This document shows, one piece after another, positions 1 through 57,662 of a stretch of 64,000 nucleotides of DNA. The notes beneath the pieces were generated by a model. It had not been told where the DNA came from. It did no database searches and saw only the letters and a program-made list of their open reading frames with translations. The first letter of the stretch is position 1; each line of letters opens with the position of its first letter. The position numbers were made by a program, and so were the translations under genes. This DNA is from an uncultured Bacteroidales bacterium (GTDB taxonomy: Bacteria > Bacteroidota > Bacteroidia > Bacteroidales > VadinHA17), in contig CAWFKG010000017.1 in the NCBI GenBank assembly GCA_963816365.1, forward strand, positions 28,415-92,414. Direction: 5' to 3'.

Positions 1-1041
1 TCATAATTGCTTTGCTTTCAGGATAATTCTCAACAAACCAAATTAAAAAAGCAGTAACATCAATTGTTTCTTCAAGCATTTTTTTGCGTCGTTGCAGAAA
101 TTCATCCTTTATACCGGGTGTTTTTAATAAACTAACGGCTTTTTCTAACAAGACCTGTCGAATTATGGAAACAATATAATAATCCATAAATTTGATGCTG
201 TTCCAAGATATCCAAGTGAAATGGTGTTTATATACAAAGCTGGTGTACCCAGAATGGCACATTCTGATGCAGTTGTCGCTCCTTCACCAATGTACAATGC
301 AGCATAAAACAAAGCATGATGAAGCCTGTCGGGAGAAATTTGCAGCGCATATTTCTCAAATTCCGTGAGGTAATGGTTCTTTCACTTGAGATAAACACAG
401 TTAGCATATTTTGATATCTCTTCTATTAATTCAGATTTCTGCTTTAATGATAAACCGGATTGTCTGAAATCATGTGTTGCATTCCAGGATACAAACCTCA
501 TAATTACAAATTTTTCCTTTTCTTTTACATTCAATTCATTAAGTACTGAAATGTCGGGATTGAACCTCTCGGGATGCAGGTATGCAAGCTCATGAAATCC
601 ATTATATCTGATATGTTTTTTGCCAAGATCTACCTGTAATGACTGTGGTGAAAGTATTACATCACTTACAGGTCTGCTAAAAAACAGTTGTTCCATATTT
701 CCGGTATCTTCCAGGGCAATATGCTTCTTACCTGTAAGAAATGCAGCATATCCGGCATACATCGAGCCATGACTTAGATAACAGATCAGGTTTAAAGTGC
801 CTGGCTATTCTCAATATTTCATATGTAAATCCGAAAATGCCCAGAAGCTTCCTGAGAGATCCGGTTTGCTTTTTCCCGATGACAGCATACGTAAATCCAT
901 TTTCTTCAAGCAGACTGAGCCTGGTGTTCGCTCTTCCCTGACAGTAAAAAAAAACTCATGACCTTTTTTAATCATTTCATGAGCCATATTTTTAAACAGG
1001 TGGACATGTGCAGGATGACCTATATCTACAAGAATTTTCAT
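1..1041 (-). CDS. DUF354-family protein (GT-B/epimerase-like fold), reading frame broken at least 3 times; 3' end lies at or just outside the window start
   Basis: ORF 811..1041 begins MKILVDIGHPAHVHLFKN, a typical DUF354 N-terminus. ORF 382..762 and three further frames of 1..381 (ALFYAALYIGEGATTASECAILGTPALYIN / EQHQIYGLLYCFHNS / LLKTPGIKDEFLQRRKKMLEE) continue one protein. Confidence 0.6.
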
Positions 1042-1068
1042 ACTAATCCAGTCAAATTGCTTATCAGA

Positions 1069-1737
1069 TTATTTCAGAAGCCTGGCAATAACTGTTTCTC
1101 CTGCATAAACCTGTTCTCCCTCCCTGACCATAATATCACAATTTCTTGGTATGATCAGATCAGCCTGCGATCCCCATCTTATTCTGCCAATAATGGCCCC
1201 ATGATCAACTGTCTCACCTTCCTTTACAGAAATTATACACCTGCGAACATAACGTGCTGCAATCTGAACAACTGCAGCTATTATTCCATCCTCCCTCTGA
1301 ATTACTATTGTATTACGCTCATTTTGAACGGTGGATTCCGGATTATTCAGGCCCAGGTATTCACCCGGTGTATGCTTAACCAGTACAACTCGTCCGTTTA
1401 TCGGAGCTCTGTTCATATGAACATCAAATAATGTCATGGCTATGCCAATAAGGTAACAGGGTTGCTCTGGAATATTTGTCTTTGTAATTTCATTAATATG
1501 TGCCAGACGGTATTTCTTTACAGAAACCGGTATTTGTCCCTTTTCAAGCTCTTTAATATAGATAATCCTTCCATCAGCAGGTGAAACAAATTCATCAGGA
1601 TCAGAGGTTATCTTCCTTTCTGGATTTCTAAAAAACCTGTAAAGGAAAAGTAGTATAAATAAACAAAATCCTATAAACGGACTAAATATCAATAACAAAA
1701 CGGTTAAGCGAAATATCGCTGTAATCATATAAAGCAA
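1069..1737 (-). CDS. phosphatidylserine decarboxylase-like pyruvoyl enzyme (small Psd/Asd type) with N-terminal membrane helices
   Basis: Intact 222-aa ORF. The C-terminal half (FDVHMNRAPINGRVV..GEYLG..RWGSQADL) resembles small PS decarboxylase proenzymes, including a G-S self-cleavage site. The N-terminus is hydrophobic. Confidence 0.6.
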   Translation of the reverse strand: MLYMITAIFRLTVLLLIFSPFIGFCLFILLFLYRFFRNPERKITSDPDEFVSPADGRIIYIKELEKGQIPVSVKKYRLAHINEITKTNIPEQPCYLIGIAMTLFDVHMNRAPINGRVVLVKHTPGEYLGLNNPESTVQNERNTIVIQREDGIIAAVVQIAARYVRRCIISVKEGETVDHGAIIGRIRWGSQADLIIPRNCDIMVREGEQVYAGETVIARLLK

Positions 1738-2134
1738 AACCGAAAATATACTGATGCATTATACCCAGCATTATATTATCGGTATAGAGGAATCGTTTGT
1801 TAAATCCTCCTTTTGATACCCAGAAAATAAATGCTGCGGTGCTGTAAAGAAAAGAGGCTAAAATAATTATGATTATTTCCATTTTTAAGTATATAAGATG
1901 ACCACGCTATCGTCTGAGCATAAGGAAAGGCAAAAGGGCAATTTCTGCAAAAGATGGCATAATATCAGTAATATCAAGTACTGCCGGGGACGGAAATTTT
2001 CTATATGATCTTAATAATTTCGCCAAAAGGATAATGTTACCCTTGACAATGCCAGCCAGACTATAAGGAATATCTGTAAGGTAGTGGATCCATTCAGAAC
2101 CAGCATTATCCTCTAAGCTGATAATCCATCTCAA
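1682..2134 (-). CDS. hypothetical membrane protein; two fragmentary ORFs that may be one frameshifted gene
   Basis: ORFs 1682..1882 and 1907..2134 are hydrophobic and show no motif I recognise. Confidence 0.2.
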
Positions 2135-3082
2135 TATTATTCAGGTAATTATAAATCATAAGAGGATAGTTGACCCCGCTCTTAATTGCCATATCAACCC
2201 AGAGCCAGGTCCTGGCATTTACTTCAATAAGCTTGTACTCATTGTCCCTTGAGTCGAGGAGAAACTCAATTTCACAGACACCTGTAAATGAAAGTCTTCT
2301 TAATAGTTTCTCTGCCAATTCGACTAATTCCGGAATATCTGTCCATCGGCTATATGTGGCTGTTCCAAACTGTAATGGATGTTCCCTCATCTTCACTCCC
2401 ATCCAGTATGATTTTATTTCACCATCAATTGAAAAAGAGGTGAAAGAGACGGCTTTGTTCTTTTCAACCGGCACTAAATTCTGAAGGTAAATATCTGAAA
2501 ACGGAACTTTGTCGAATATGGAATCCAAAATCTTTTTTAAATTTTCAGGAGCATTAACAAGCAATGCTTTCTTCCCAGTCTTTTTATAAAATGTAAGTCC
2601 GTTTTTCCCCTTAAGCAGCAAGGGGAATTTAAGTTCTGAAAGTCTGATGTCTTCAGGATTATCAGGGAACCATGAAAGAGGAACCGGAACATTTATAGAC
2701 TGGCATAGTTTTATAAGAAGCTCTTTATTGTAAATTGATTCGAGTATTTCAGGTTTCGGGGATATAATTTTATAATATTCCTGCAGCCTTTCAATATTTC
2801 CGGAAATATTATAAACAGCATGGTCATTCGAGGGCAAAAGGACCCAATCCTTTATCCCTTCATTTAATGCCAGCCTTGATCAAGAAAGTCTATAAATTCA
2901 CCCGATAAATAATCCGGACATTTAAAGAACTTTTTACAGTACCTCGAATAATGGGCCAGGCAATTATACTCACTGACTACAATTACCGGGATTCCGGCTT
3001 TCCCAAGTGCCCTGGCATTGGCCAGCCCCTGCACGTGTCCTTCGATTACTACTACTCCAGGCAAACCAGCTTCAGGTCTCAC
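2106..3082 (-). CDS. ATP-grasp domain carboxylate-amine ligase, one frameshift near 2868-2880
   Basis: ORFs 2864..3139 and 2106..2837. VVIEGHVQGLANARALGKAGIPVIVV is the N-domain and FTGVCEIEFLLD..YKLIEVNARTWLW is the ATP-grasp core. The probable GTG start at 3082 overlaps the upstream TGA (GTGA). Confidence 0.6.
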
Positions 3083-3798
3083 TGCACAAAAATTAATCTC
3101 TTGATGCCATTCTTTACTTTTTGTGTACCATATTCCCACATCCAGATAAACAAATCATCTGACCAGCGTTGAGGATGAACTGTGATCATCAATTGCTCAG
3201 GTAATTTATTGCCAGAAGCTGCTGCAAGTATATTGTCAGAATTTTTCAATCGATTCTTTTAGCCCAGAAAATTCTCCTGAAATACCTTATCGCGGACGCT
3301 TGATCTCTCTCCGTTCCATTTTCGTCCTGTATCGGTCAGATAGAGCACATTAGTAAAATCGAGATCAAAATACGGTTCAGCAATTATCCCGAAATCACGG
3401 TAAGAATAATTATTCCAAAGATCACGGTTATCCCATTTTGAAGCCGGACTGCCATGCATGCAAATTGTTTTTACCGGATAGAAAGTTCTGAAATAATCAA
3501 GATTTGATTCAAAAGTTTGAATCGCATTTTCAGGTACACCATTTGATAATGCAAGATCCTCATAATGATAGCCGATTTCATGTCCCAAGGCAGCTATTTC
3601 TTTCATTACCAATGGATTATTGCTCTCCTTAACAATCCTGAAATAATACGTCCCCCTGATCCCCTTTGAGTTTTCCAACTTTGCAGTATTCAATGAAAGC
3701 AAAGGGGACCGGTCAACATCATGTCTTAAAATCACAACTTTTTCAGCAGGATCATGCAAAAAATCTTCAAGGCTCTGAAATGAATATCCATTGCTCAA
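3079..3798 (-). CDS. polysaccharide deacetylase-like protein with an in-frame TAA at 3259-3261
   Basis: ORF 3259..3798 (ILRHDVDR..GYHYEDL..CMHGSP..DTGRKWNGERSSVRDKV) continues in the same frame after the TAA. It reads ..LMITVHPQRWSDD.. to a TGA at 3079-3081, about 240 codons in total. Confidence 0.55.
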
Positions 3799-3895
3799 CC
3801 AGACAATCCAGTATCTCTGTAAATTTCTGAATCGTAAAATCGAACTGTTTATTCATTTATAGGTATTTAACCACGGAGTTGGAGCTCATGATCAA

Positions 3896-4232
3896 CTCAC
3901 CGCCGTCCCATAGACGTCAACTTAAGGAGTTGAATATAGTAGAATGTAAAATATTGGATATAAGCCTGATACATTTCCCCTCCTTTTGAAGGAGGGGTGG
4001 CCGGACCACTTTATAATTATGTTACAAATACTGATACCGGCCGGGGTGGTTGATTGTTTATTCAATTTCCTGATCTTTTCTTTTGAAGGTTTTTCTTATC
4101 TCATTTTTTACAAATTCAGGTTCCTGGAATACTAACGCTCAGCCCCCTTCAAAAGGGAGGGGAAACTTTTTTATGCAGTATCTCATTCATCCCCCAAAGC
4201 TTAAGTTGACGACTATGGGGATGGGGGTGAGT
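3896..4232. mobile_element. gene-less deletion derivative of the DUF559 hairpin cassette found at 56730-57506
   Basis: 3942-4131 is nearly identical to 56828-57018. The outer inverted repeat is CCATAGACGTCAACTTAAG / CTTAAGTTGACGACTATGG and the inner one is TTTCCCCTCCTTTTGAAGG / CCTTCAAAAGGGAGGGGAAA. Only about the last 25 codons of the DUF559 gene remain. Confidence 0.7.
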
Positions 4233-4347
4233 ATGTAATTGGCAAAAGAAATTCACAATCTACAAGATGTGTAAAAAGGTTATTACCAGCAGGAAGGGCA
4301 ATCAAATAATTTAATTAGCCTCTGTGTTACTCCTGTGTTGAAAAAAG

Positions 4348-5730
4348 CTAAAAGGGAAGTTTTATGGATTCATCCCTTATAATGAATTTTCTTTTCCCGG
4401 AAGGAAGCAAAGGTATTTCAGCAACTATATTGATCTCAATATCAACATCTTTACCGATCAAATCATCAAGACCTTCAGCAATTGCAGCTTCAGTTACTTT
4501 ATTATACCTGTCATTTACAACCAGCAGTACTTTTACCTTATCAGGTTTGGGTTGAACAACCTGGAATTGAATAATTTCTGCAAAATATTCAAAGAAAATT
4601 GTGAACGTATGAACAATTAGGAATTTCCCTGAAGGTGTAACCAGTATGTCTGAATTTCTTCCTTTAATCTGCCTGAAAGATGCTAAATTCATTTCTGAAT
4701 TATGACTTTCTTCCGATTTTTCAATTATATCCTGTGTGTCATAACGGATAAAAGGCATAGCAAGGTTCCATAGATCAGTTGTTATATGTCTTCCGAGAGT
4801 TGCAGGCGAGTCATTGTTATCAAGCACCTCAGTAATTGCATATTCCATAGAGGCAAGGTATGCATTTGCGCTCAGGACCTTCAAAAAACTGGGCACTGGC
4901 TTCGCAGCTGTACGAATCGAAAACCGGGGCGCCAAATGCCTTTTCGATTTTTTTACGGGTATCTGGAGTAAGAATATTCCCGGTCGTATTTATTGCCTTT
5001 GGAGAATATTGTATACTATTCCCATCATTGATCAAACGTGAAAGAAAAAGCAGGGGATCAGGGTAACATCTTATAAATTCGGGTTGAGATTGATTCAGTC
5101 TTTGTATTACATCTTTCAGATTTTCCGGTGTCAGATCCCTGATAAATATGTATTGGCTACGTGTAACAAGGTCCTGGAGTTTCTTATAAAAACCTGTCCG
5201 TGGATTCTGGCTAAGCTTCGCATAGGTGTCACCAAGACTGTATCCCATCCAGTACCAGCCTCGGATAGCACAGGCATAATTCATACTATAAGCTTCAGGA
5301 GTTATGAAATAGGTAAAAGGCGCTCCGGTTGAACCGCTTGAATTAAGACGAATACGCTTTCTCGGTGAGATATTCCTTGCAATATAATAATCCTGCAGGA
5401 TGTTTACGCAGATCATTTTTTGAAATAACCGGAATTTTTTGGAGATCAGCAATTTCTTTATATCAGAAGGTACAAGATGATGTCTTCTGAAAAAGATCAT
5501 GATAGAATGGAACATTTTCATATGCATGTCTTACCAGAAATCCGTAATCGTTCTTCCTGATATGTCTTCAGCTCTTCAGCCTTCCAGTACTGGCTTTCAA
5601 GAAGGAAGTGAAGTGAATCCGGAAATGGATTGTCCGGAAAAAATATCATTTGCCGGAAGAATGATATTTTCCTGTAACCAGTTATAAGACTGCCATTATT
5701 CCCGTAAAGCTTCGAGATCATTTTGATCAA
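4348..5730 (-). CDS. phenylacetate-CoA ligase / CapK-like adenylate-forming enzyme, 2 frameshifts
   Basis: ORFs 5518..5730, 4829..5527 and 4348..4935 join into about 460 aa. The AMP-binding motif NSSGSTGAPF is present and the C-terminal domain ends PLLPSGKRKFI. Confidence 0.7.
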
Positions 5731-5759
5731 CTATTTTACTTTGCTGCGCAGCGGAGTAG

Positions 5760-6812
5760 TTATCTTTTACAGTCTGAATACCCTGCCTGAGCCATTCCGG
5801 CACGAAGGTTGTCATCACTAACACTAAGATGAATATATTTTGCGAATGATTTAATATCTCTGTAATTATTTATCAGAAAGGCATTTACTGAATGAGTGGC
5901 AGCATCGCTTACATTACCGACATTTGATATAACAGGAACACATCCGCAGGCCATGGCTTCAAGCATTGAAGTCGGAAGGCCCTCACTGCGTGAAGGCATA
6001 ACCAGAATTTTTGACCTTTGAAAATAGGATTCCGTATCATCTATGTGACCTGTAAAGACAACGTTTTCAGAAAGACCGAGCATCCTTGCCTGATCAATAC
6101 AGTATTTATAAAGATAGCCATCCCCTATAAAACAAGCCTTTAAAAGATGGGAAATCCTTTTTTAACAGAGTTAGCATCTGCAGTACTTTGTCGGGACCTT
6201 TAAGCTTGCGAAAGGTACCTACAAACAGAACATCAATATCTTTTAATGTGGATGAATTAAAATAAAACTTCGCCAGGTTTATGGCGCCGTTATAAACCAA
6301 TACTTTTGAAGATAAGAATGTTATGGTCAGTCAGATAGCTATTTACAATGCTCCCTTTTGTGGTTATCAGGTCGGTATTCCTTTAATGCCCATAAATTCA
6401 GCCGTTTCAGAAACCATCTGAAACGGCTGTATGTTTCAATTTCCACAATACCCCCAATAAGTGAAAGAATGCATTTTGAACCGGTTAACCTGGCAGCCAT
6501 CAGACTATTAATTCCTTTCGGTATCAGATGATAGCCGTTTATTATATCAGGTCGTATTTTATAGGCATGGTAAATCAGTTGAACAGGTTCCGCAATGAGT
6601 CTTACAAATCTGGACAGGAACCGTGGTTTTATATTCAATATCCAACCAGGCAGGGTAATGTATACTGTTTTTGGAAGCGGAAGTGCTTCCTTTTCCCTGA
6701 AAATGTAAATACGGCTTACTGAAGGATTAATTGTAAAAGGTTCAGCTTTTGAGTAAGTAAGAGATTTGCCCATCCTTCCGACAACCAGGAAACAGATTAA
6801 TTCTTTTTCCAC
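5760..6812 (-). CDS. glycosyltransferase family 4, two compensating frameshifts
   Basis: ORFs 6339..6812, 6106..6300 and 5760..6083. The C-terminal motif is SRSEGLPTSMLEAMACGCVPV (E-x7-E). Confidence 0.7.
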
Positions 6813-7890
6813 AAAGATCCGGATTTAATCTTTATGTTACTAAATAAATATTCTTTCGATTGAGGACTTAATTTGAATATATTCCTGAAAAGATATAACT
6901 TCATGTGGAGCCTTGCATACAGTCTTTGTTTTCTGCATTCATGCAAATATGTTTTCTGATAAAGCTCGCGCGGACCGGCCTGAATCAGGTTCCATTTTTT
7001 ATCCCTGCCTGCATTGTCAGATAATACTTCCTGAGTTATTGAATAATCTTGGGTGAAATCGGGTTGTATCCTGAACTTTTTTACCTGATAATCAATTGAT
7101 TTGTCTTCATTAAGAACCAGATCAACGTACATCCCATTTCTGACATTTTTTGACCAGAACATATCAAAAAGAAAATTCCCAAGGCTGTAAATAATAATTC
7201 CTCCATGATAGTTTTCAACCGGTTGAACAACATGCGGATGATGACCAATAATAATGTTTACTCCATTGTCAATAAGCTCATGGGCAAGATCGACCTGTGC
7301 TGGAGAGGGCCAGGTTACATATTCATTACCCCAGTGGAAACTGAATATAATAAAATCCGGTGATTGTGTTTTAATTTCGTCCAGGGTGTTAAAAAGTATG
7401 TCTCGATCCATGGGAGCGATCAAGTTGCATTCCGGATGATCATTGATCGCATTAAAAGCTGCAAATGCTATTTTCCTGTCTTTGCTTCTGATAATGGCTA
7501 TTTTGGAAATACTTTCCTGTCTCGAGCCTATATGTGATGAATCCATTATCTCTCCAAAGAGTTTATAGTTGAATCAGAACCCTCCCTGCCATGATCGGGC
7601 ATATGGTTATTTGCAATGGAAACAACTGAAATGTTAAGGATCTTCATTAGACGCAGAACTTCAGGATTTCCTTCAAATGGCTTTTTAACAATATTGGGCT
7701 TTATCAGGGGAGCTTCAAGATTACAGAAAACTATATCTGAATTACAAAACGGATTGTTCTTGTTATCGGAATAATATTCAATCAGCCTCGTCATATTACT
7801 TCCAATCCCATTCCCCATTGTATAAGCAGTATCAGCAGGCAATATATCACCTATACATGAAATTCTTATAGACCCCATATATCTAAGCAA
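6797..7890 (-). CDS. CapA/PgsA-type (PGA_cap) metallophosphatase-fold capsule synthesis protein, one frameshift at ~7546
   Basis: ORFs 7546..7890 (SIANNHMPDHGREG) and 6797..7546 (FSFHWGNEY..IIGHHPHVVQP..IIYSLGNF). Confidence 0.7.
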
Positions 7891-7925
7891 TTAACTTTGT
7901 CCTTCATACTGCTTTCTTCTCCCTT

Positions 7926-8045
7926 GACTTAGAGACTTAGAGACTCAGGGACTTAGAGATCGAAGTACTGAGCAATGTCCCTTTGTCCCTTAGTCTCTTA
8001 GTCTCTCAGTCTCTTAGTCTCTCAGTCTTCAGTCACTTAGTCTCC
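7926..8045. repeat. empty imperfect hairpin of the GACTTAG / CTTAGTCT 8-mer family
   Basis: The left arm at 7926-7959 and the right arm at 7986-8045 are complementary at about 29 of 34 aligned positions by eye. The loop is about 25 nt. The right arm ends on the stop codon of the 8045..9447 gene. Confidence 0.8.
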
Positions 8046-9447
8046 TAACCCCTGCCTTTAAGTCTGACATAATTCCACCCTACTATCAAAATAACAGCAG
8101 CAACCAGGTAAACCGGATACCATTTTTTACTTTTCATTTTATAGATCCCATATGCTGCCAGGATTAACAGAAATGGCTTTGCAGGATAGGAAAACCGGAC
8201 GGAAGTGAACATCATTGCCTTAAGCAAGACAAATTGATAACCAATAACAAATGCCAGTAATACAGCCATCTCCTTTCTTTTATACCGCAGGGAATAGTAT
8301 AAACCATAGAAGCTAAAAAAAGCCAATGCAATCCAGAAAATATTTCCTGCTATATGATAATAGTATTCGGAATGTGGCAGATCCCCGGCATTTGGGACAG
8401 TTACAACGCTTGGAAATGGGGAGATATATGACAGAACGGCAAATACAGGTGAGCCGACCAATGCCACAAATGGATTTATTCTTTCCATATATGATAACCG
8501 CTCCTGTGTGAATTCATCAACATTGGTATACTGGTTATAATATTCATCAAATCTGCCAGTTGATTTAAGAAAATATACAAAAGCAATAATAATAATACCT
8601 GCCAGTAAAATATTAAATATTAATGGCCTCCGTTTCAGCTGCATAAAGAATGAAAAACCCGATACCATTAATAGCAAGTATACTTACTGCTGGTCTGAAA
8701 GAAAAATAAGAGGATTATTAATAAAAGTTCCTTAAGCAAATAATGAAGTTTAAAAGATCTTTGTGTTTTAACCATTAGAATAAGGGCCTCGATCATTAAG
8801 AGAACCATAAGACTTTCCTTCAACATTATTTCTGAATAAAACCATGATATCGGATAGAGAACAAGCAATATTCCCGCAAGTCTGGCGGCGGGTCCTTCAA
8901 TCAGCAGACTAGCTAATTTATATCCCCTTACAACAACTATACTGCCTACAAAACAAAGGAAGATCTTTATTACTACCGGAGATAGTCCGAATATGAAAAT
9001 CGGGAACATCAGAAATGTTGAGAAACCTGTATTCGAAATATCATTCTTATAACTGGAAAAAATATGAAGATAAGCATCTCTTATTGTTTGATCTTTCCAA
9101 ATATCAACCGCCTCATTGGCAACACGATAATAAACCATTTCATCCCTTGCTCCTACTGTAAAAAACATATTCCAGGTTTTATAGGAAATTATGAGCAGAA
9201 TAAGCATAGCTACTATCCGGATTATAAATGCAATCCAGAACAACTTATAAACAAAACTTTTTTCATTGATCTGATTGCTGCTTTTAGACAGAATTCTTAT
9301 GCCTGAAATTGTCAGTATAATTATAAATGTTGCAGAAGCAATCCATTCAATACCATAGATTTTTCCAGGGAAAACCAGATATAGAACTATAAATAGAAGT
9401 AATATGAAAACAATAATTTTCCTCTCTATGTCAGAAGTCCAACCCAT
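8045..9447 (-). CDS. polytopic membrane protein, GT-C (ArnT/PMT_2-like) glycosyltransferase or polymerase, one frameshift at ~8670
   Basis: ORFs 8668..9447 and 8045..8677 carry at least 10 hydrophobic segments. The first-loop motif GARDEMVYYRVANEA resembles the DE..Y motif of ArnT-type enzymes. Confidence 0.45.
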
Positions 9448-9453
9448 CGGTTA

Positions 9454-10548
9454 TTATAAATTATTGGCGATTTCTAAAAATTGTTTTGCCCTGCATTCAG
9501 ATGATTGTCCGAATGCAATTTTTATTCCTCTGTCAATTATCCCTTTGCTTTTAGCTTTAATTACTGCCTCTTTGATTTTATTTACAAAATCAATCTTATC
9601 AGCTGCGATAAAAACAAAATCTTCAAAGACATTGTATTCCGCATCTAACCTATAACTCACAAAGGGTTTCCCAAGTGCCAGATATTGATACTGCTTATTA
9701 TTATTAAGATAATGAGCATATTCATGGTCAGGTTTTGCTGCAACCAGACCGATATCCCAGTTAATTACATATTTCCGGAAAATCATTGAATGGAATCAAA
9801 GCCAAGATATTTGACATTAGGATAAGTTAATAACTCATTCCACAAAAGCTGTTCTTCTTTATTTAAATCCAGTTTACCAGCAATTTCAAAATCGTATTCC
9901 GGAAGATTCTTTGCAATAAAAATCATTAATTCAATATCGATAACGTAGTCAATATTCCCAGCTAATCCGATTAACGGATTTCGTTTTTTCTGACAAAAGA
10001 TGCCCATTTATTATAATTCCACAAGTCAAGATCCACTGTATTTGGCCATAACTGTATATTGTCCGGAATAAATCATAATACTTTTTAAAATAATAACTGC
10101 AAAGGCTTTTGCTAATACCCAAAATCAGATTTGCCCGATTTATTATAGGAAATTCCTTTTTGAAATTGCCGGGATAAAGTAAAATACTCGGATCACGAAG
10201 CAGATAGATTAATTTTTGATCCCTTTTCAGGTATGGGAGAAGATAATACTGATTTGGATCAGTAAAAAAAATAAGTTCATAATGACGAAAAAACGAAATC
10301 CATTTAAAAGATCTCAGAAAATGTTCAAAAAATGTAAGAACTCTTATTTTTCTTAACTTTTCTACAGTCCAGAAATGATAAAAGTAAAATTTTATATCAA
10401 GAGATATATTTTTCTTTCTTCTGATATTCAAAACAGAGTTAAACAACAGAATATCAAGATCCGGGTTTAACTTATGAATAGATTCAATCGTTGCTCTGCG
10501 GGTATAGTTAATAAAATCAAGACTACTGCAGACTGTTAGAATTTTCAC
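9454..10548 (-). CDS. GT-B fold glycosyltransferase, 2 frameshifts
   Basis: ORFs 9949..10548, 9783..10007 and 9454..9786 read as one ~360-aa protein. The call rests on size, context and a C-terminal Rossmann-like segment only. Confidence 0.45.
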
Positions 10549-11766
10549 TTATACCAGCGATAAAAGTTCGAAAGCAAATGCATTATAATTCTCTTCAGCA
10601 TTGAAATTCTCTTCCCAATTTCTACGCGAATACAGACGTTTCTTTCCCCATTTCTCCTTTTCTAAATAAACTCCATAAATCGCCTCAGCAATTTCAAGTG
10701 GGGAAGGATTGGCTGAAAGAAGCAATCCGTTTATATTATTTACTATCTCAGGTATACCCCCTACAGCTGTAGCAATTACAGGAATACCAAATGATTGTGC
10801 TTCCATGATTGATACAGGTATTCCTTCATTCGCACTTACAGTCAAAAACAGGTCAACTGGCTTCGATTTATAAAAACTGAATATTTCGGAGTGTGTCAGC
10901 TGGCCTGGTAAAAAACACTGAACCGAAGAATCTTTTAATGAGCTATTCGCCTTTTCTACGTATTCAACCAAATCACTTCCACTTCCCAAATGATACCATC
11001 TTACATTAATTGATGGGAATATGGTACTGAATAATATCAATGAATCTAAAATAAGATTTATTCGTTTGTTTGGATTAATCGCTGAACATGACACCAGGGT
11101 AAGACCAGTATTCCCTTTGGAAAGATTGGTAAATTCCGGATCGGAGGTTCCAAGACGGGAAAGATAATATTTATCAGAAAATTCAGGATATTTATCAAAT
11201 ATATAATTCCGGCCATGATCGGAAATCAGAAACAGCCTGTCTAAATTTTTTATTGTTGCCGCTTTAATAAATGTCAGACTTTTTTCTCCCCTCTCTTCAT
11301 ATAAATCGAAACCATGTGCTCTGCTTATCAGAATTTTAATCCTTCCTTCCCTCTTTAATAAAGCCAACGAAAAGGCGCTGAAATTAAGCCAGTAAGAATA
11401 ATGAACTGATGACTCTTCGGGTATTATTTTTGATAACCTGTTCTTTGTTAAAGTTGCAAATCCCAGGTATTTTAATGCTTTGAAAATAGAAATCTTTTTC
11501 AGTTCATTTTTTATTTCAGGAATTTCTAATATCAAATACCACGATAAAAGTCCGACCAGGTACATTCTAAAAAGGTGCCATTTTTTATCCTGAACCGGAG
11601 AAAGTATCTGAATATTTCCCGGTACATTTCTAGGGGCTCCATCTGCCTTGAAAGGTACTATATAAACATTATTAAAGTGAAGAGAAAGAATTGGGATCTC
11701 AGTTTCCAGGAAGGTCTCTGCGTTCCCAAATGGAAAACTATTTGTATATATTGTCAGGACTGACAT
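10549..11766 (-). CDS. glycosyltransferase family 4
   Basis: Intact 405-aa ORF with the motif SANEGIPVSIMEAQSFGIPVIATAVGGIPEIV. Confidence 0.8.
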   Translation of the reverse strand: MSVLTIYTNSFPFGNAETFLETEIPILSLHFNNVYIVPFKADGAPRNVPGNIQILSPVQDKKWHLFRMYLVGLLSWYLILEIPEIKNELKKISIFKALKYLGFATLTKNRLSKIIPEESSVHYSYWLNFSAFSLALLKREGRIKILISRAHGFDLYEERGEKSLTFIKAATIKNLDRLFLISDHGRNYIFDKYPEFSDKYYLSRLGTSDPEFTNLSKGNTGLTLVSCSAINPNKRINLILDSLILFSTIFPSINVRWYHLGSGSDLVEYVEKANSSLKDSSVQCFLPGQLTHSEIFSFYKSKPVDLFLTVSANEGIPVSIMEAQSFGIPVIATAVGGIPEIVNNINGLLLSANPSPLEIAEAIYGVYLEKEKWGKKRLYSRRNWEENFNAEENYNAFAFELLSLV

Positions 11767-15514: not shown

Positions 15515-16766
15515 TTACAATAAATTCTGATACAACTCAATATATTTATCAGCCTGATGGTTTATTGTGAATCCGGTCAGTACTTTATCGCGGCAATTAT
15601 CCGCCATCTTTTTATAATTTTTTTCATCTAACTTAAGTATCTGGTCTATAGCATATGAAAGACCGTGAATGTTGCCCGTATCTGCTAAATAACCTGTTAC
15701 CCCGTTTATGACCATATCAGGAATGCCTCCGGTATCAAAGCCTGCAACTGGTATTCCGCAAGACATTGCTTCCAGCGCGGTTTGCCCGAATGCTTCCTGA
15801 AGGGATGGTATGACAAAAACATCTGCACTGCTATAGATCAATGAGAGTAAATGATTACTACCAACATTCCCCAGATGTAAATTGGCTAAATCAATATTGG
15901 TTGGTAAAGTTCCTGATCCAAAGCTGAGTAAAAATAAGTTTGAATAAATTCTTCGAAGTTGAATTAATGCTGCCAAAAGTTCATGAAACCCTTTTCTTGG
16001 ATTATTAATTCCCGGTGCGCCAAATACAATTATCCGGCTATCGACAGGAATATTTAATGCCCGCCGGCAGGCAATTTTATCAAGAGGGGTGAATTCATCA
16101 GTTTCAATGCCATAATGAACAGTGCCAATATTCAGATCTTTAAGTAAACGGCTTCGTTTTGCTTCACCAGCCAGCCAATGGCTGTCAGCTCTTATTATTA
16201 TTCTTTTTTTAAATTGAGTGATAGCTCTGAATTTTCGTTCCCAGCTGAAATAGGAAAGATCTTTATCTGAGGTTGACCCCAATTGCGGACATTGTCTGCA
16301 GCGTGTTTTGAATTTTTCACAACCGCTGTTATAATGACAACCTCCTGTAAAAGGGAACATATCATGAAGTGTCCAGACTACAGGTTTATTCACTGTTTTA
16401 AAGAACGCCGGCAAATCAACGAAACCAGATGTCCAGTGTAAATGATAAATATCTGCATCGGGCAATTGACGACTGAATCCTGCTTTCAGAGCGCTTCGGT
16501 CGTCGCTGAAGAGTTCCTGATTTGTCTGGCGGGAATTGAGAATATTTAGCAAAATCAGAACTTATAAGGTTCTTACGGCTCCTGTATAGGAATTTTTCAA
16601 ACGACACGGGATATTTATAACTGATAACCGTCTCATCATCAGAGTATTTTGTACGAACGAACATATTAGAAGCAACAGATTTCTGAATCAGACCTTTGTG
16701 AAGTCTGTACGCAGCTCTTGAGGCACCGCCTGAATTGTCAAGAGTGCTGAGATGCAGAATGTGCAT
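15515..16766 (-). CDS. glycosyltransferase family 4, one frameshift at ~16420-16550
   Basis: ORFs 16416..16766 (MHILHLSTLDNSGGASRAAYRLHKGL) and 15515..16552 (IPSLQEAFGQTALEAMSCGIPVAGFDTGGIPDMV). Confidence 0.7.
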
Positions 16767-17791
16767 TACGTAATTTTTTAATTTTTCTCAAAAGAGACTT
16801 CTTATATCGTGTAAAAACATCTTCAAACGGATTTAGAATAATATAAAAGGACTTTTTCAAATTGTAAACTGGATTGTGAAGAAGTTTTTCGATATCATTT
16901 GTTTGTCTTTGCTTGACCGGTAATATTCCCTGATCAATGTCTCTGACCATAGATAAGATCTGTCCGGGATGTTTCCCTTTAAACCTTTTCAGCCATGATA
17001 CATCCCAATAAACACTGAATACACTGAACGGATCCTCGAGATTCATAAAAACTTCGTTGGCCCACCATTCAGCTTTTTTACGCTGTGACCATTCTGCATT
17101 TTTGTAATAGTCAGCCTTTTCGGCAACCTGTTTTGGAAAAACAAAAGAATAATGGTACAGGTAAATGCCCAGTTTTTGTGTCTGTTTTGCTCTTAACCAT
17201 TTTATTTTTCTTGTATCCAGTACCCTGAGCATCAACAACTGTTGGCGGACGATGTGAGGTATATTCAAAACCGGGACCCCATTTAAATAATCTGTGAAAT
17301 TCTTCAGCTCCCCGCTTTAGTAACCAGCTGTCAACGAGATAATCAAATCCTCCCCAAAACTGTAGTTGTTTGAAGGATATTGAGGTAATTTCAGGATCAT
17401 ATTCCAGGATTTGTTTGATTGATTCAATATCTTCATCCTTGTAAAATTCATCAATATCCACCTGCCAGAGATAATTTCCTGTTGCTCTTTTTGCATATGC
17501 CCGGCTTTGCTCATGTTTCTCTCCGGGCCAGAAGCCATTTGGATGACCTTCATCCTCGGCAGTTATAATAGTTATTTTATTTTCAGGATCGTTATGCCTT
17601 TTAATCTCTCTGAGTATTTCAAGAGTTCCATCCTTTGAATGACCATAAGGGTCTGCAACTGCACGGGCCCCTTCACATGCACCCTCGGATATAAGTATTT
17701 CGTGAGCATGAGGATATAGTGCATTGATGCAATAACGGGTAAATGGCTCACCATTAAGAACAATTATGCCGAAGCTTATTTTTGAAGACAT
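16738..17791 (-). CDS. GT-A fold (family 2-like) glycosyltransferase, one frameshift at ~17110-17270
   Basis: ORFs 17111..17791 (SFGIIVLNGEPF..QVDIDEFY) and 16738..17268. The assignment is weak. Confidence 0.45.
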
Positions 17792-18986
17792 GTTAAATAA
17801 ATCTTCTCAAGCCTTTTATTCAGCATATCAATATCATAGTTCTTTGCAATATGAGCTCGTCCTTTGTTACCTAATTTATTTCGCAATTCAGGATTTGAAA
17901 TCAGAGTTTTTAAATAGGTTGCCATAAGTTCTGTGTCTTTACTTTCGACCAGGAATCCGTTTTCTTCATGATGTACAAGCTCGGAAACGGCAGCTACATC
18001 TGGTAGCGATAACCGGCAATCCTGAAGCCAGGGCTTCCATGATAACAACAGGTGTCATTTCATCCAGGCTAGGGAGTAAAAAAATATCGGCATTCTTGTA
18101 TTCAATTAGGAGCTCATCCTTATTTTTAGGACCTGTAAATACGACATCTTTCTGAATATTAAGATCTGAAGCTATTTTCATAAGATTTTCCAGTTCCGGG
18201 CCATAGCCTACAATTCTGTAAGTAAATCCGAAAATCAGGAAGCTCTTTTTTAATTATATGAAAAGCCTCCAATCCATATTGATGACCCTTAATTGAATGC
18301 GAGTCTGCCTACGCTTAATATAACAATTTCATTTGTGCTTTTTGCCGTCTGGCTATTGTTTTGTACTTCTTTGTATCAACACCTACTGGATGAATGATTA
18401 TCTTTTCTTCCGGAACTCCAAACCTGTTTAAATTTTATAAGAATAATTGCTGATAGCCAAAATTTTATCAGCATATTTAAAGCTTTCGGAGTAGATACTT
18501 CCATTTGATTCAATCAGGTTTACGAAGATCATATCTATGCATCATCAGAACAATAGGTGCTTTGATCCCCAATTTCTTTAAGAAGGATAGCCCTGTCCAG
18601 TAATCAGTATAATGAACCTGGATGATATCAATATTTTTATTCAGGAAAGGAAGTACCTGGTAAAAGATCCTTAAAGAGAGAGCTTGTTTTCCGAATTTAA
18701 ATATGTTCAGGCTTTTGAATACCTGTTTATTATTGTCGCTAAAAAGTTTAAAAATAATTGGAATTGATTTAAAATACCGGTTAAGGATATTCTTATGAAA
18801 GGGTATTGGATATATTGCATAAGAATTCAGATCATAGCTCGAAATTTCACGATGAAAGATGCCTTTTTTTTCATATTTTGGGAAAATTAAAACCTCATGT
18901 CCCTGGTCAATCAGGCCTGTAATCTGATTCAGGATAAATGTTTCAGGAAGGCTTGGGAATGCTCCAATGATAAACGCAATTTTCAA
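17776..18986 (-). CDS. glycosyltransferase family 4, several frameshifts
   Basis: The N-terminal ORF 18510..18986 reads MKIAFIIGAFPSLPETF. The C-terminal pieces 17966..18181 and 17776..18048 read LPSLDEMTPVVIMEALASGLPVIAT..ENGFLVE. Confidence 0.6.
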
Positions 18987-31123: not shown

Positions 31124-31670
31124 GGGCGCGAGGTATGCGGTTTGCGGTGTGCGGCAGAAGGTACGCAGAAGATTATTTGCTGTATGAGGTTTAATATAAA
31201 ATCATTATCTTTAGGCTCAGTGCTAATTTAAATTATTAATCTAAAACGCTGCATCATGGGAAATTTTCAAAAACTTCGTGTTTGGCAAATTGCCAAAGAA
31301 CTTGCCGTTCAAATTTACAAAATGACTCAAAATCTTCAGTTTAGAAAAGATCTGGGATTCAAAGATCAGATTCAAAGATCTGCAGTCAGTATTCCTTCTA
31401 ATATAGCTGAAGGAGATGAATCAGGTACTGATAAATTATCAGTCAGATATTTTTATATAGCTAAAGGATCTATAGCGGAACTTATGACACAATTAATAAT
31501 TGCCAACGAGATTGGTTATATTGATTCTGAAATTAAAAGTCAATTAGTTGATACCTGTGATAAATTATCTTCAATGTTGACTAGACTTATAAATGTAAGG
31601 CGTCAGATGAAATAAAATCGTCTATCCGAAAAACAAATACCGCATACCGCACGCCGCGTACCGCAAGCCC
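31124..31670. mobile_element. hairpin-bounded cassette a (four-helix-bundle cargo), arms (TGCGGTN)n / (ACCGCAN)n
   Basis: Left arm 31124-31169 and right arm 31637-31670 match at about 25 of 34 Watson-Crick positions by eye. Most of the remainder are G-T pairs. Confidence 0.65.
31256..31615 (+). CDS. four-helix-bundle protein (23S rRNA intervening-sequence protein family, PF05635/TIGR02436-like)
   Basis: Intact 119-aa ORF. KDQIQRSAVSIPSNIAEG and YIAKGSIAEL are the family hallmarks. Confidence 0.85.
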   Translation: MGNFQKLRVWQIAKELAVQIYKMTQNLQFRKDLGFKDQIQRSAVSIPSNIAEGDESGTDKLSVRYFYIAKGSIAELMTQLIIANEIGYIDSEIKSQLVDTCDKLSSMLTRLINVRRQMK

Positions 31671-36140: not shown

Positions 36141-36657
36141 GTGTTGCTGGTTGCTGGTTGCTGGTTACTTCTTACGATAATTAGCAATTAGCAACTAGCA
36201 ACTCGTAACTAGCAACTGGCTAAGTTTTCCAATCAGATTCTACATATTTGATGAAATTGTTAATCATTTTTCCTAAAGTGTCAAGATCCTTAAGAATTTC
36301 TACAAATTCTGAAATCTTTGGGTACAGTTCAATAACAGTAACTGCCTGATTAGTTGCTTCATCGCAGGAAGCTTGAGAATAAACTAAATAACGAATAAAC
36401 TCGGCTTTATACCTTCTTCTGCCGTATCCTTCGACAATATTATCCTTTACGCTTTTTGTCGATCTTCGGATTTGACTTCCTTGTTCATATAGTTCAAACT
36501 GAGGTAACTTAAGTGATGCCTTGTGTACCCTTATAGCTATAACATACGCCAGCTTATAAATTTCCAAATCTTTATAACTCTTCATAATTATTCCTTTCTA
36601 CTTTAGCACGAGCAACAAGCAACAAGCAACAAGCAACTAGAAACTAGAAACCAGAAC
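36141..36657. mobile_element. hairpin-bounded cassette b, arms (TTGCTGG)n / (AGCAACN)n with two alternative right-hand partners
   Basis: 36141-36167 can pair with 36178-36218 (local) or with 36605-36657 (across the gene). Confidence 0.65.
36220..36585 (-). CDS. four-helix-bundle protein (PF05635-like, second subfamily)
   Basis: Intact 121-aa ORF with GSQIRRSTKSVKDNIVEGYGRRRYKAEFIRYL. Confidence 0.8.
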   Translation of the reverse strand: MKSYKDLEIYKLAYVIAIRVHKASLKLPQFELYEQGSQIRRSTKSVKDNIVEGYGRRRYKAEFIRYLVYSQASCDEATNQAVTVIELYPKISEFVEILKDLDTLGKMINNFIKYVESDWKT

Positions 36658-42190: not shown

Positions 42191-42890
42191 TCTTTTCTTT
42201 GCCCCCCTGCCCGAGAAGTTAAATCTCTGTTTATCCTTTTGCCCCCCTGCCCCCCTAAAGGGGGGTTCGTACTCGTTATTTAAGTGAGTTTTGTATATTT
42301 GAAATATTGCTGCATTATTAATGAAAACAGTAATATCTAAAATTACTATGTATTATGGAGCGGATTCCGCGACATTAAGACACCCATATACTTAGAAGGA
42401 GTATGACTAAAGATGAAGGGGTACTATGGAAAAAGTTAAAGGACAGAAATGTATTTAGCAGTAAAATTTAGAAGACAACATCCTGTTTATAATTTCATTG
42501 TTGATTTTTATTGTCATGAATATAAGCTTGTCATAGAAGTTGATGGAGATATTCATAATGATGAAATTGCATACCAGTATGATTTGGGCAGAACTAAAGT
42601 GCTTAACAATTTTGGATTGAAAGTAATCCGATTTACAAATGATCAGATACTTTATAGTTTAGATTCTGTAATAGAGGAAATCCAAAGAGAAGTTGCGAAT
42701 CGAACTCCCCTTAGGGGGGCAGGGGGGCAAAAAAGAGATGAGCATAATAAAATTGGGCAGGGGGGCAAAAAAGAGATGAGTATAATAGAGTTGGGCAGGG
42801 GCAGAGATGAGCATAATAAAATTGGGCAGGAGGGCAAAAAGAGATGGCATTAGGATAATAATGCTGGGCAGGGACAAAAATAACAGAATG
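42191..42890. mobile_element. hairpin-bounded cassette with DUF559 cargo; arms are inverted arrays of a ~38-bp unit
   Basis: The left side has 2 units ending TTTTGCCCCCCTGCCCCCCTAAAGGGGGG (42191-42266). The right side has 5 units, GGGCAGGGGGGCAAAAAAGAGATGAGCATAATAAAATT and variants, starting at 42717, 42755, 42793, 42824 and 42866. Confidence 0.7.
42348..42853 (+). CDS. DUF559 (Vsr-like endonuclease fold) protein, 2 N-terminal frameshifts, C-terminus reads into the repeat arm
   Basis: ORF 42449..42853 (FRRQHPVYNFIVDFYCHEYKLVIEVDGDIH..LKVIRFTNDQI) parallels the intact copy at 56944..57327. Upstream frames give MYYGADSATLR.. and ..MTKDEGVLWKKLKDR. Confidence 0.65.
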
Positions 42891-44608: not shown

Positions 44609-44920
44609 TTACAGACTTAACGGCGCAAAGGCGCAACGGCGCAAAGGCGTGAAGAAATATCCAATTTCCTCCGCAATGATAAGTTGTGTTAACAACTCTG
44701 CACTTGAACCTTTTGCAATATAAAAATGACGGATAGATTGTTTATCTGTTTCAAGTTCATCACCTTCAGCAATATTTGAAGGTACGCTAACGGCAGATCT
44801 CTGAATCTGATCTTTCAATCCAAAGTCTTTTGAAAATGACAGCGTTTGAGTTAGTTTATAAATTCTCACAGCTAATTCCTTAGCCAGTTGCCACACACGA
44901 AGCTCTTGAAAATTTCCCAT
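44609..44920 (-). pseudogene. 3'-truncated four-helix-bundle gene; the last 16 codons are read from the repeat arm
   Basis: The first 88 aa are about 80% identical (70 of 88 by hand count) to the protein of 31256..31615. Helix 4 is missing and is replaced by FFTPLRRCAFAPLSL, encoded by the (GGCGCAAA)n arm. Confidence 0.75.
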
Positions 44921-45098
44921 AATACAGCGATATTAGATTTATAAATAAAAGTTAGCACGTAGGATAAAGATATAACTTTTCTCTGAGATTAACTGGATGT
45001 TAGTTGTTTCCTAAAATTGCATATCGTAATCCCAATAATTATTAATAAACTTTCTCAGCAAGGCCGTTGCGCCGTTGTGCCGTTGTGCCGTTGTGCCA
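44617..45098. mobile_element. hairpin-bounded cassette c, arms (GGCGCAAN)n / (GCCGTTGN)n 8-mers
   Basis: 44617-44650 TTAACGGCGCAAAGGCGCAACGGCGCAAAGGCGT against 45062-45098 GGCCGTTGCGCCGTTGTGCCGTTGTGCCGTTGTGCCA. Confidence 0.7.
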
Positions 45099-46730: not shown

Positions 46731-46855
46731 TTTATTATCAGAATTAAATTAATGGGTGTAAAGTTAGAGAAAATTAGTAAAAGGACACACGACACACGAC
46801 TCACGACACACGACTCAAATACGAAGAATTGTTTTGACTTTTTAAAAATGATCTT

Positions 46856-46863
46856 TAAATTTG
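46856..46863 (+). promoter_or_regulatory. candidate -7 box TAAATTTG inside cassette d
   Basis: It matches TAnnTTTG and lies 38 nt upstream of the ATG at 46902, internal to the left arm. Confidence 0.4.
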
Positions 46864-46901
46864 ATTTGGAATAAAAAGTAATCACTTAATCTCGCTGTGC
46901 T

Positions 46902-47261
46902 ATGAGCAATTATGAAAATTTGAAGGTTTGGCATAGAGCCGTTGAACTTGCAGTTTCAATCTATAAGTTAACAGGAACGAACAAATCATTTGTTAAAGAT
47001 TTTGGATTAAAAGATCAAATACAGAGATCATCTGTGAGTATTTCCAGTAATATTTCCGAAGGTGATGAACTCGGAACTGATAAGCAAGCTATCAGGCAAT
47101 TCTTTATCGCAAAAGGATCGGCAGCAGAACTTTATACTCAGCTTACTATTTCCTCTAAAATAGGATACCTGAATGAGGAAGAAGCCAAGTATTATTTGAA
47201 TGAATGCAAAGGCATTTCATCCATGCTGACTAATCTCATTAAATCGAGATCATCAGAATAA
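46902..47261 (+). CDS. four-helix-bundle protein (PF05635-like)
   Basis: Intact 119-aa ORF with KDQIQRSSVSISSNISEG and FIAKGSAAEL. Confidence 0.85.
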   Translation: MSNYENLKVWHRAVELAVSIYKLTGTNKSFVKDFGLKDQIQRSSVSISSNISEGDELGTDKQAIRQFFIAKGSAAELYTQLTISSKIGYLNEEEAKYYLNECKGISSMLTNLIKSRSSE

Positions 47262-47312
47262 ATTATAATAGATTCTATTTAGTTCTTTAAATTCTCTATT
47301 CTGCACGGTGAT

Positions 47313-49315: not shown

Positions 49316-49571
49316 GACTCAGAGACTCTAGGGACTAAGGGACTGAGGGACTGCACACCTAAATAGTCTAGGATTGAGTGACATATCGACAGTCTTCCAT
49401 TATTTTCTCATACAGATCCATCAGGGAAAGCTCTTCGTCATTATTGCAACTTAAGAGAATCAGAGGTTTTGTAGGGAAGATATACTAAAGAGTAGTCTAA
49501 CCAGTATGCTTCATTACAGACTCTTCGTCTCTAGTCCCTATAGTCCCTAAGTCTCTTAGTCTCTTAGTCTG
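49316..49571. mobile_element. decayed cassette: arms of the GACTAAG / CTTAGTCT family around a ~40-codon remnant of a four-helix-bundle gene
   Basis: Arms at 49316-49352 and 49518-49571. The minus-strand remnant 49368-49457 reads ..LLSCNNDEELSLMDLYEKIMEDCRYVTQS*, which resembles the C-terminus LSCDYMTEQEHFDLNETYDKILGKL of 54156..54527. Confidence 0.6.
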
Positions 49572-56717: not shown

Positions 56718-56729
56718 GACATACAGTAC

Positions 56730-57506
56730 TCACCCCCTTCATCCTCCATAGAGAGTGGCGGGGAGGCAAAACCGTCAACTTAAGAAGTTGAATATAGTAA
56801 AATATGGAGAGAGTTTAGTACAAAACAGAATGTAAAATATTGGATATAAGCCTGATACATTTCCCCTCCTTTTGAAGGAGGGGTGGCCGGACCACTTTAT
56901 AATTATGATACAAATACTGATACCGGCCGGGGTGGTTGATTGTTTATTCAAATTCCGGATCTTTCATTTTGAAGATTTTTCTTATCTCATTTTTTACGAA
57001 TTCAGGTTCCTGGAATACCAGCCTGTTTTCAAACCTTAGTACTGAGAATCCAAGGCCTTCAAGATATTGATCTCTTTTTTTATCTTTTTCTATTTTATGA
57101 TATTCACCATGCGGATTTCCATCAAGCTCAATTACCAGTTTTTCTGAAGTACAACAAAAGTCAACTATGTAATTACCTATACTATGTTGTCTTCTGAATT
57201 TTCTTTCATTAAGCTTTTTTGATTTTAAAATGTTCCATAACTCAGCCTCAGCAGAAGTGGACTTGTTCCTAAGAGATGATCTAAAAAACTTAAGGCTTTT
57301 TTTGTTAAAGAGGATTTTGTTTTTCATGCCAATAAAGGTAAGAAAGAAATCAATGAATCAACCACCCCGATCGGGAAATAAAACACTGTATATATCAGAT
57401 AATCAATCGTCCCGACCACCCCTCCTTCAAAAGGAGGGGAAACTTTTTTATGCAATATCTCGTTCATCAATAGAGATTAAGTAGACGGCATGGGGTGGGG
57501 AGGTGA
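56730..57506. mobile_element. hairpin-bounded cassette with intact DUF559 cargo and three nested inverted repeats
   Basis: The outer pair is 56730-56786 / 57467-57506. The middle pair is 56858-56896 / 57409-57444, and each member contains its own CCCCTCC..GGAGGGG hairpin. The inner pair is 56919-56941 / 57354-57376. Confidence 0.75.
56944..57327 (-). CDS. DUF559 (Vsr-like endonuclease fold) protein
   Basis: Intact 127-aa ORF with AEAELWNILKSKKLNERKFRRQHSIGNYIVDFCCTSEKLVIELDGNPH..LRFEN. Confidence 0.8.
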   Translation of the reverse strand: MKNKILFNKKSLKFFRSSLRNKSTSAEAELWNILKSKKLNERKFRRQHSIGNYIVDFCCTSEKLVIELDGNPHGEYHKIEKDKKRDQYLEGLGFSVLRFENRLVFQEPEFVKNEIRKIFKMKDPEFE

Positions 57507-57662
57507 TTACATTAAATATTTAGGGGAATACGGAGGCTAAAAATGCTGCTGTACATCAGGTACCGAAGATCCGGAGCTATAAAATCAAGGAAATCTAATT
57601 TATCATCTCTATTCAAACCGATTAATATTAATTGCTATTTTTGAATTATTAACTCTGACAGT

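Follow-up and report, generated by a model that had tools for sequence, protein, structure and literature searches.

A short intergenic segment of an uncultured Bacteroidales genome as a probable relic of a DUF559 cassette with IS231-type ends

The segment at 3895-4232 of the window, by which we mean the whole 64,000-nt stretch of Bacteroidales DNA analysed here, is very probably an internally deleted, non-coding, MITE-like relic of a mobile insertion cassette that carries a DUF559 gene. We refer to this segment as copy A and to a longer copy, at window 56728-57509 on the minus strand, as copy B. We have good confidence that the cassette itself is a non-autonomous element with ends of the IS4-family, IS231 type, whose sole gene encodes a 127-aa DUF559 nuclease. 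Cassettes bounded by CATAGCCGTCAACTTAAG repeats are present at many intergenic sites in Bacteroidales genomes, and most of them are gene-less through differing internal deletions. Copy A is an ordinary relic; the family to which it belongs is abundant in environmental Bacteroidales. The annotation label for the 340-bp segment is a decayed insertion-sequence-derived cassette, and neither a regulatory RNA nor a feature of the glycan locus.

Anatomy of the short copy

From its left end, copy A starts with an extra inverted flank, ACTCACCGCCGTCC (3895..3908), lying outside the left terminal repeat and complementary to 4218-4232. The left terminal inverted repeat, CATAGACGTCAACTTAAG (3909..3926, plus strand), is the end downstream of the gene remnant; it is of the IS231 type, fitting CAT-------AA--TAA, and is close to the IS231C end. 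The sub-terminal spacer that follows (3927..3973) lacks a 28-nt segment found in copy B and other family members. Two hairpins come next, H1, TTTCCCCTCC-TTTTGAA-GGAGGGGTG (3974..3999), which is invariant family-wide, and H2, GGCCGGACC...ACCGGCC (3999-4042), whose stems co-vary across the family. Directly after H2 stands the conserved box GGGGTGGTTGATT (4043-4055), and then the remnant of the DUF559 gene (4058..4132, minus strand), in which the stop codon and the 24 codons before it survive; the tblastn match to this remnant spans 25 residues and extends three bases further, to 4135.

A 10-nt deletion junction, TAACGCTCAG (4133..4142), marks the place from which ~400 bp are missing, comprising codons 1-102, the leader, the box and the upstream H2. 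The sequence resumes in a degenerate H1 of the upstream arm, CCCCCTTCAAAAGGGAGGGGAA (CCCCCTTCAAAAGGGAGGGG; 4143..4164), as had been described in the sequence-only reading, where about 25 retained codons were followed by a jump to the right arm. Next come the upstream-side sub-terminal spacer, ACTTTTTTATGCAGTATCTCATTCATCCCCCAAAG (4165..4199), and the right terminal inverted repeat, CTTAAGTTGACGACTATG (4200..4217, minus strand). The second extra inverted flank, GGGATGGGGGTGAGT (4218..4232), pairs with 3895..3908. The outer inverted repeat is indeed retained, since the terminal repeats CATAGACGTCAACTTAAG / CATAGTCGTCAACTTAAG are intact and complementary at 17 of 18 positions, and complementarity continues beyond them for ~14-15 more bases, out to 3895 and 4232. 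Between its terminal repeats copy A measures 309 bp, among the shorter forms of the family. With the 3' codons and both ends kept, the earlier view of the short copy as a MITE-like derivative formed by internal deletion agrees with this anatomy.

Copies A and B align without gaps over 3941-4132 and 56827-57018, with 185 of 192 positions identical (96%), and the match first noticed at 3942-4131 / 56828-57018 is real. Two further blocks are shared, 3915-3940 with 56773-56798 (25/26) and 4143-4190 with 57421-57467 (~93%). In shuffled sequence, 0 matches are expected for the hairpin and 0.01 for the repeat, which excludes chance. Divergence between the copies is uneven, as had also been claimed: mismatches affect 1 of 117 non-coding bases versus 7 of 75 bases in the coding remnant (Fisher p = 0.006). 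Inspection of the alignment shows that some of these differences arose on the lineage of copy B, where its orthologue L142 and other members carry the state of copy A.

Two copies that are 96% identical inside one 64-kb window, in an assembly whose many apparent frameshifts suggest that it is error-prone, could also reflect a segmental duplication or an assembly artefact. We find this hardly credible. Similarity stops at the ends of the element and the flanks differ; the two copies differ in structure and by 7 or more substitutions; orthologues of copy B occur in three other assemblies; and more than 100 further family members are present in other genomes and metagenomes. The structural differences, the substitutions, the unlike flanks and the orthologues together make an assembly duplication unlikely.

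No ORF of at least 45 aa is found in copy A, and as a single strand the segment is predicted to fold end to end (z = -6). An Rfam scan of the whole window matched no known RNA family. The operon strand of copy A has GC-rich hairpins but no terminator-like site, and the sole terminator-like matches lie on the opposite strand.

Copy A would have arisen from a full cassette by loss of ~400 bp (codons 1-102, the leader and the upstream H2 arm) and of the 28-nt spacer segment, probably in place. Its deletion junction has 0 exact matches in the metagenome contig collection; a unique junction gives no evidence that copy A ever moved as a short form and is consistent with a private deletion in place. 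With its ends intact, copy A may be mobilisable in principle if a matching transposase is present.

The long copy and the two insertion sites

Copy B (56728..57509, minus strand) is a full cassette with damaged ends located just 3' of dnaG, with dnaG on one side and a gene of ~299 aa on the other. Its DUF559 gene (56944..57327, minus strand) is intact and encodes 127 aa (Pfam PF04480, E = 5e-34). At one end (56747-56790), CATAG is split from CGTCAACTTAAG by a 21-nt insert, AGAGTGGCGGGGAGGCAAAAC, which is common to the orthologue L142. The other repeat (57474-57492) is degenerate, CATGCCGTCTACTTAAT, with the gene between the two ends still intact. Copy B is therefore probably immobile despite its gene. 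Calling it autonomous-looking, as the sequence-only reading did, does not suit an element that encodes no transposase and whose IS231-type ends are damaged, when elements that bear a transposase exist elsewhere.

Three independent metagenome assemblies (L141-L143; DnaG 99% identical) have an orthologue of copy B at this site, and these orthologues share the oddities of its ends. In a more distant relative, L144 (DnaG 93% identical), the site is empty: ~890 bp are absent and the two genes nearly abut. One gene beyond this site, L144 has another, different DUF559 cassette, which the window lacks at the corresponding position. The relative L145 has neither of these two cassettes, and DUF559 relics are found elsewhere in it. 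Since copy A has intact ends and lacks the 28-nt spacer segment of copy B, it is not simply derived from copy B.

Copy A separates two minus-strand genes, lying between the stop codon of one that is capK-like and the start of one that is deacetylase-like; the deacetylase assignment was made by eye. Another relative, L146, is 84-91% identical across window 2-10795 (~90% in the genes beside copy A) and lacks copy A. The corresponding intergenic space, where the sequence-only reading had suggested checking for an empty site, holds an unrelated inverted element made of octamer repeats. Intergenic DNA has been replaced in the relatives, so the exact insertion points of both window copies cannot be reconstructed.

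A family of DUF559 cassettes

Intact members of the family measure 722-732 bp (unit ~726 bp) between 18-bp terminal inverted repeats with the consensus CATAGCCGTCAACTTAAG. The ~726-bp unit recurs at 89-93% identity to copy B in unrelated gene contexts, and similarity ends at the repeats. Read in gene direction, a cassette consists of a terminal repeat, a ~31-nt spacer, H1, H2, the box GGGGTGGTTGATT, a leader and the DUF559 gene; 3' of the gene follow the reverse box AATCAACCACCCC, a second, inverted H2, a second, inverted H1, a 70-90-nt spacer and the other terminal repeat. The two boxes thus form a palindrome that brackets the gene. H1 (CCCCTCC-TTTTGAA-GGAGGGG) is invariant in the family. H2 has many different GC-rich basal stems in which complementarity is kept: true partners pair over a mean of 7.6 bp, with 77% reaching at least 7 bp, against a mean of 5.4 bp and 23% for mismatched partners.

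The DUF559 protein of the window has more than 2,300 homologues, many of them 85-92% identical and on short metagenome contigs; an exact look-up of the protein itself returned no record. Two identical proteins (P0009 and P0014) are each encoded in several different gene contexts. A scan of species-representative genomes for H1 found at least 120 loci, nearly all of which, among the matches listed, belong to MAGs of uncultured Bacteroidales, Rikenellaceae or 'Bacteroidetes', with at least 9-20 loci per MAG. The plasmid and viral collections matched neither the element nor its terminal repeat. Literature searches for DUF559 as a mobile element, and for Bacteroidetes insertion cassettes, returned no description of the cassette family.

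Only 7 of the 45 unique repeat-bounded elements in the genome loci have an intact gene, and 38 (84%) are gene-less or degenerate, among the matches listed. The non-intact elements range from 168 to 732 bp and show differing internal deletions or frameshifts; two more, of ~2.2 kb, contain nested insertions. A 427-bp gene-less derivative occurs at two sites in MAG GWA2_40_15 (L035 and L112), the two copies being 97% identical and flanked by different duplications. Its presence at two sites in one genome indicates that gene-less forms can move.

The two ~2.2-kb elements were considered as autonomous partners and rejected, being DUF559 cassettes with nested insertions: by eye, an apparent group II intron with a 481-aa reverse-transcriptase-like ORF in L089 (2300-4545), and an IS1182-like insertion sequence with a 511-aa ORF in L139 (90-2291). 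The smallest forms, of 168-172 bp (L092 5044-5211; L145 11096-11267), are composed of a repeat, a spacer, a single H1, a spacer and a repeat. Both come from one MAG (MFD05705.bin.1.174), and one has a perfect duplication, CCCCCAACCC. Recombination of one H1 hairpin with its inverted partner apparently gave rise to such minimal forms.

Two other identities were tried and set aside. Core sites unlike GTTRRRY and the absence of an integrase nearby, both judged by eye, do not fit an integron attC site. A homing endonuclease gene, whether free-standing or intron- or intein-borne, does not fit an element with terminal repeats and 10-bp duplications at many unrelated sites.

Ends, target duplications and transposases of IS231 type

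Elements of the IS231 subgroup have the end consensus CAT-------AA--TAA--- and direct repeats of 10-12 bp (PMC2266710, Table 1). The family repeat fits this consensus at 8 of 8 conserved positions, and the repeats of copy A do likewise. The IS231C end, CATGCCCATCAACTTAAG(AA), read from a B. thuringiensis plasmid (NZ_CP083105.1), is identical to the family repeat at 15 of 18 positions, and that copy of IS231C is flanked by an 11-bp duplication, GGGTACCGCCA.

In 54 unique elements of the family, the 10 nt outside both ends are direct repeats, matching at a mean of 6.7 of 10 positions versus 4.0 for random pairs. Duplications of at least 9/10 occur in 19 of the 54, versus 1.6% of controls, and the signal, absent in the 6-, 8-, 12- and 14-nt registers, is confined to the 10-nt register. 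The family therefore inserts with a 10-bp target-site duplication. The consensus of the duplicated target is SSS-(T)NAA-SSS, that is, SSS-N4-SSS. This is of like type to the target of IS231A, GGGNNNNNCCC (GGGN5CCC, with an 11-bp duplication; PMC2577343), with a spacing one base shorter. Together with copies 90-92% identical to copy B in different gene neighbourhoods and with presence or absence between relatives, these duplications bear out the proposal that the two copies belong to a mobile family.

Target-site features at the outer ends, which the same reading had suggested looking for, are thus found in the family and not at the window copies. There is no direct 10-bp duplication at copy A (1/10) or, from its flanks by eye, at copy B. 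Both copies instead have ~15-19 extra inverted bases (TACTCACCSCC...TCC) outside their repeats, which counts against our explanation, and inspection revealed no duplication outside these extended flanks. Similar C-rich flanks of other family copies resemble parts of GC-rich hairpin targets.

Scanning metagenomes for the repeat recovered more DUF559 cassettes and short gene-less forms, as well as 15 elements, 1.44-1.86 kb long, that are bounded by this repeat. Clear 9-10-bp duplications flank several of the 15 (in L208, GGCCGAAGCC on both sides), and others have none. Of the 400-453-aa ORFs in these elements, both of those scanned against NCBIfam match its model of IS4-family transposases, NF033592, with 181 and 242 bits (cutoff 115), and all three scanned against Pfam match DDE_Tnp_1. 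In the printed transposase sequences, the motif LYRIRWQIELIFKIWK fits Y-2-R-3-E-6-K (YREK). For one transposase, the best relatives in the plasmid database are Bacillus IS231-family proteins, with 28-33% identity across 95-98% of the length; Bacillus accounts for 700 of its 802 match records there. At the right end, several of these insertion sequences have a T-run and a hairpin, e.g. TTTCCCCATTCCTTTGGAGAACAGGGG, that resembles H1, which suggests that the cassette arms probably derive from the insertion-sequence end.

We propose that the cassettes would be moved in trans by the DDE transposase of a 1.6-kb insertion sequence with the same ends, probably by cut-and-paste, as reported for IS231A; matching IS4/IS231-type transposase genes would then be expected between CATAGCCGTCAACYTAAG ends. 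Mobilisation in trans is suggested, at the level of sequence, by duplications that flank intact as well as gene-less copies and by the occurrence of one form at two sites. A point against this explanation is that neither the window nor ~1.2 Mb of Bacteroidales genome loci yielded a transposase with such ends. Large ORFs beside orphan terminal repeats in the genome loci were considered as transposases and rejected as ordinary host genes. For the transposase-bearing metagenome contigs, low G+C is the sole host feature that fits; their flanking genes and a cluster look-up indicated no taxon. As neither copy A, copy B nor the rest of the window encodes a transposase, the window elements are non-autonomous.

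Comparison with known mobile elements

Mobile insertion cassettes are elements of 0.7-3 kb with insertion-sequence ends and no transposase that are moved in trans (PMC6199540). With IS231-type ends, no transposase and one unrelated gene, the DUF559 element belongs to this class, as MIC231 does. Like MIC231, the DUF559 cassette is ~0.7 kb long and transposase-less and carries one unrelated gene between two IS-type inverted repeats. With MIC231 and IS231 of the Bacillus cereus group it shares the end consensus (15/18 identity to IS231C), a GC-flanked, AT-centred target and the existence of transposase-bearing relatives with the same ends; the target duplication is 10 bp in the DUF559 family against 10-12 bp in IS231. 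The hosts differ, being uncultured Bacteroidales for the DUF559 cassette and Bacillus for MIC231, and the transposases with DUF559-family ends are only 28-33% identical to those of IS231. MIC231s carry varied genes, the cassettes described here always DUF559; and in these cassettes, unlike MIC231, the inverted arms are long and nested, each containing two hairpins. Movement in trans, part of the definition of MIC231, is for the DUF559 cassette a probable property read from its sequences.

The features that mark IS4/IS231 elements are spread over different levels here. Ends of this type are present in copy A; a duplication within the 10-12-bp range is found in the family, not in copies A or B; a GGG-N5-CCC-like target preference is seen at the family level; and a YREK DDE transposase between the ends, absent from the window, is present in the 1.44-1.86-kb metagenome elements. 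Copy A, which retains only ~25 codons, is a relic of a mobile insertion cassette and not itself one, while copy B and the intact members carry DUF559. Copy A is MITE-like in being a short, non-coding derivative of a longer element, formed by internal deletion and ending in terminal repeats (17/18); unlike a MITE, it still has a recognisable gene fragment. Duplication and multiple copies, which copy A lacks, are found in other short forms of the family.

Other loci in the window

A third DUF559 locus, of a different type, is located at 42191..42888 (plus strand) and has inverted GC-rich units and no IS231-type ends. Its gene (42321-42712, plus strand) is frameshifted, and the protein is 78% identical to one in L144. 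The flanking units are TTTGCCCCCCTGCCC(CCCTAAAGGGGGG), two of them on the left, and the right side has a hairpin and four 38-nt tandem units; the ends, GTTCGTAMTCG..., are not IS231-like.

The presence of several inverted GC-rich units on both sides of this locus, and of a small gene bracketed by inverted GC-rich hairpins in the cassettes, recalls REP/RAYT systems, in which case the hairpins would be REP-like sequences dispersed by DUF559 and copy A a REPIN-like doublet. We consider this very unlikely. DUF559 is a PD-(D/E)XK enzyme and not an HUH/Y1 transposase; every GC-rich hairpin in the 64-kb window belongs to a DUF559 locus, with no dispersed solo copies; and the cassettes have terminal repeats of IS231 type and 10-bp duplications, which REPINs lack.

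The window also contains three 23S_rRNA_IVP (PF05635) genes, at 36220-36585 (minus strand), 46902-47261 (plus) and 54156-54527 (minus). Their loci (36143-36656, 46784-47349 and 54095-54707) are bracketed by inverted arrays of 7-8-nt tandem repeats whose unit differs by locus (GTTGCTG, GACACAC, TAGTCTCT). The copy beside dnaG is present in L144 and absent in L141 and L145. These loci look like a second family of small cassettes. Inverted 7-8-nt arrays without a gene or with a small ORF are found at 7926-8044, 31132-31669, 44619-45097 and 49316-49574. In L146 and L145, arrays (units CGCAAAG and CACAAAG) lie at the intergenic sites matching those of DUF559 copies A and B, and a possible half-array remnant is seen at window 4316-4340.

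Throughout the window, many genes are broken up into ORFs that overlap in different frames, e.g. at 3259-3857, 4348-5527, 16416-18048 and 49643-53076. They include the deacetylase-like gene, the capK-like gene, ileS and the type-2 DUF559 gene. The same pattern of split genes is seen in L144 and L146, both long-read-style assemblies. The frameshifts are probably homopolymer or indel sequencing errors and not pseudogenes.

The DUF559 protein as passenger or partner

The DUF559 protein of copy B matches a solved N. gonorrhoeae protein (PDB 3HRL) with E = 4e-22 over 100 residues; the printed alignment places its conserved acidic residues (VDF, ELDG) opposite those of 3HRL. Against the equivalog model of E. 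coli YcjD (NF007294) it scores 76 bits, below the cutoff of 218. Stand-alone DUF559 proteins (YcjD, 3HRL) and Vsr are of the same fold family as the cassette protein; unlike it, the stand-alone DUF559 proteins have not been described as cargo of insertion-sequence ends.

No passenger other than DUF559 was seen in these cassettes, and DUF559 occurs with the same ends in two diverged lineages, the second lineage being 134 aa long and ~37% identical to the 127-aa type. Between intact family copies, dN/dS is mostly 0.05-0.25 at dS 0.2-0.45, indicating purifying selection, and the cassette arms are better conserved than synonymous sites. A sole passenger, purifying selection and conserved arms are unexpected for a neutral hitch-hiker and count against our explanation. 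They leave room for a role of the nuclease in the success of the cassette. DUF559 may serve the cassette as a functional partner, e.g. a structure- or sequence-specific nickase acting on the H1/H2/box arms, that promotes retention, copy correction or transposition; we hold this to be unlikely. If true, it would explain why DUF559 is the sole passenger in two lineages, the strong selection and the conserved hairpins, and the cassette would be a two-component selfish element made of IS231-type ends and a Vsr-like nuclease.

A further-reaching proposal is that the cassette mobilises or maintains itself, with DUF559 cleaving or nicking the palindromic arms or empty targets and driving copying by homing and repair, or assisting transposition as TnsA does in Tn7; copy A would then be a non-autonomous derivative relying on DUF559 from full copies. 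This would agree with DUF559 being the only cargo in both lineages with the same ends, with its low dN/dS, with an invariant H1 and co-varying H2 stems (77% vs 23% of at least 7 bp), with the boxes GGGGTGGTTGATT / AATCAACCACCCC that bracket the gene as a palindrome, and with a weak PADLOC match to a homing-endonuclease model. We nonetheless judge it rather improbable. The ends, the duplication length and the target type are those of IS231, and there are elements with identical ends that encode a transposase. One gene-less derivative has transposed in a single genome, and the gene has been lost without repair in 84% of copies, among the matches listed. To our knowledge, no strand-transfer activity has been described for a 127-aa PD-(D/E)XK nuclease. 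The reading that we prefer remains that of a non-autonomous, IS231-ended cassette with a DUF559 passenger.

Significance

The cassette family explains why many close DUF559 homologues are found on short, broken metagenome contigs, and it provides a concrete origin for a large share of small proteins annotated as 'very-short-patch-repair endonuclease'. It also raises the question of why a Vsr-like nuclease is a constant and selected passenger. IS231-type elements and their transposase-less cassettes have been described almost only from the Bacillus cereus group (PMC2266710); the same logic of end, target and cassette is now seen in a high-copy family of environmental Bacteroidales.
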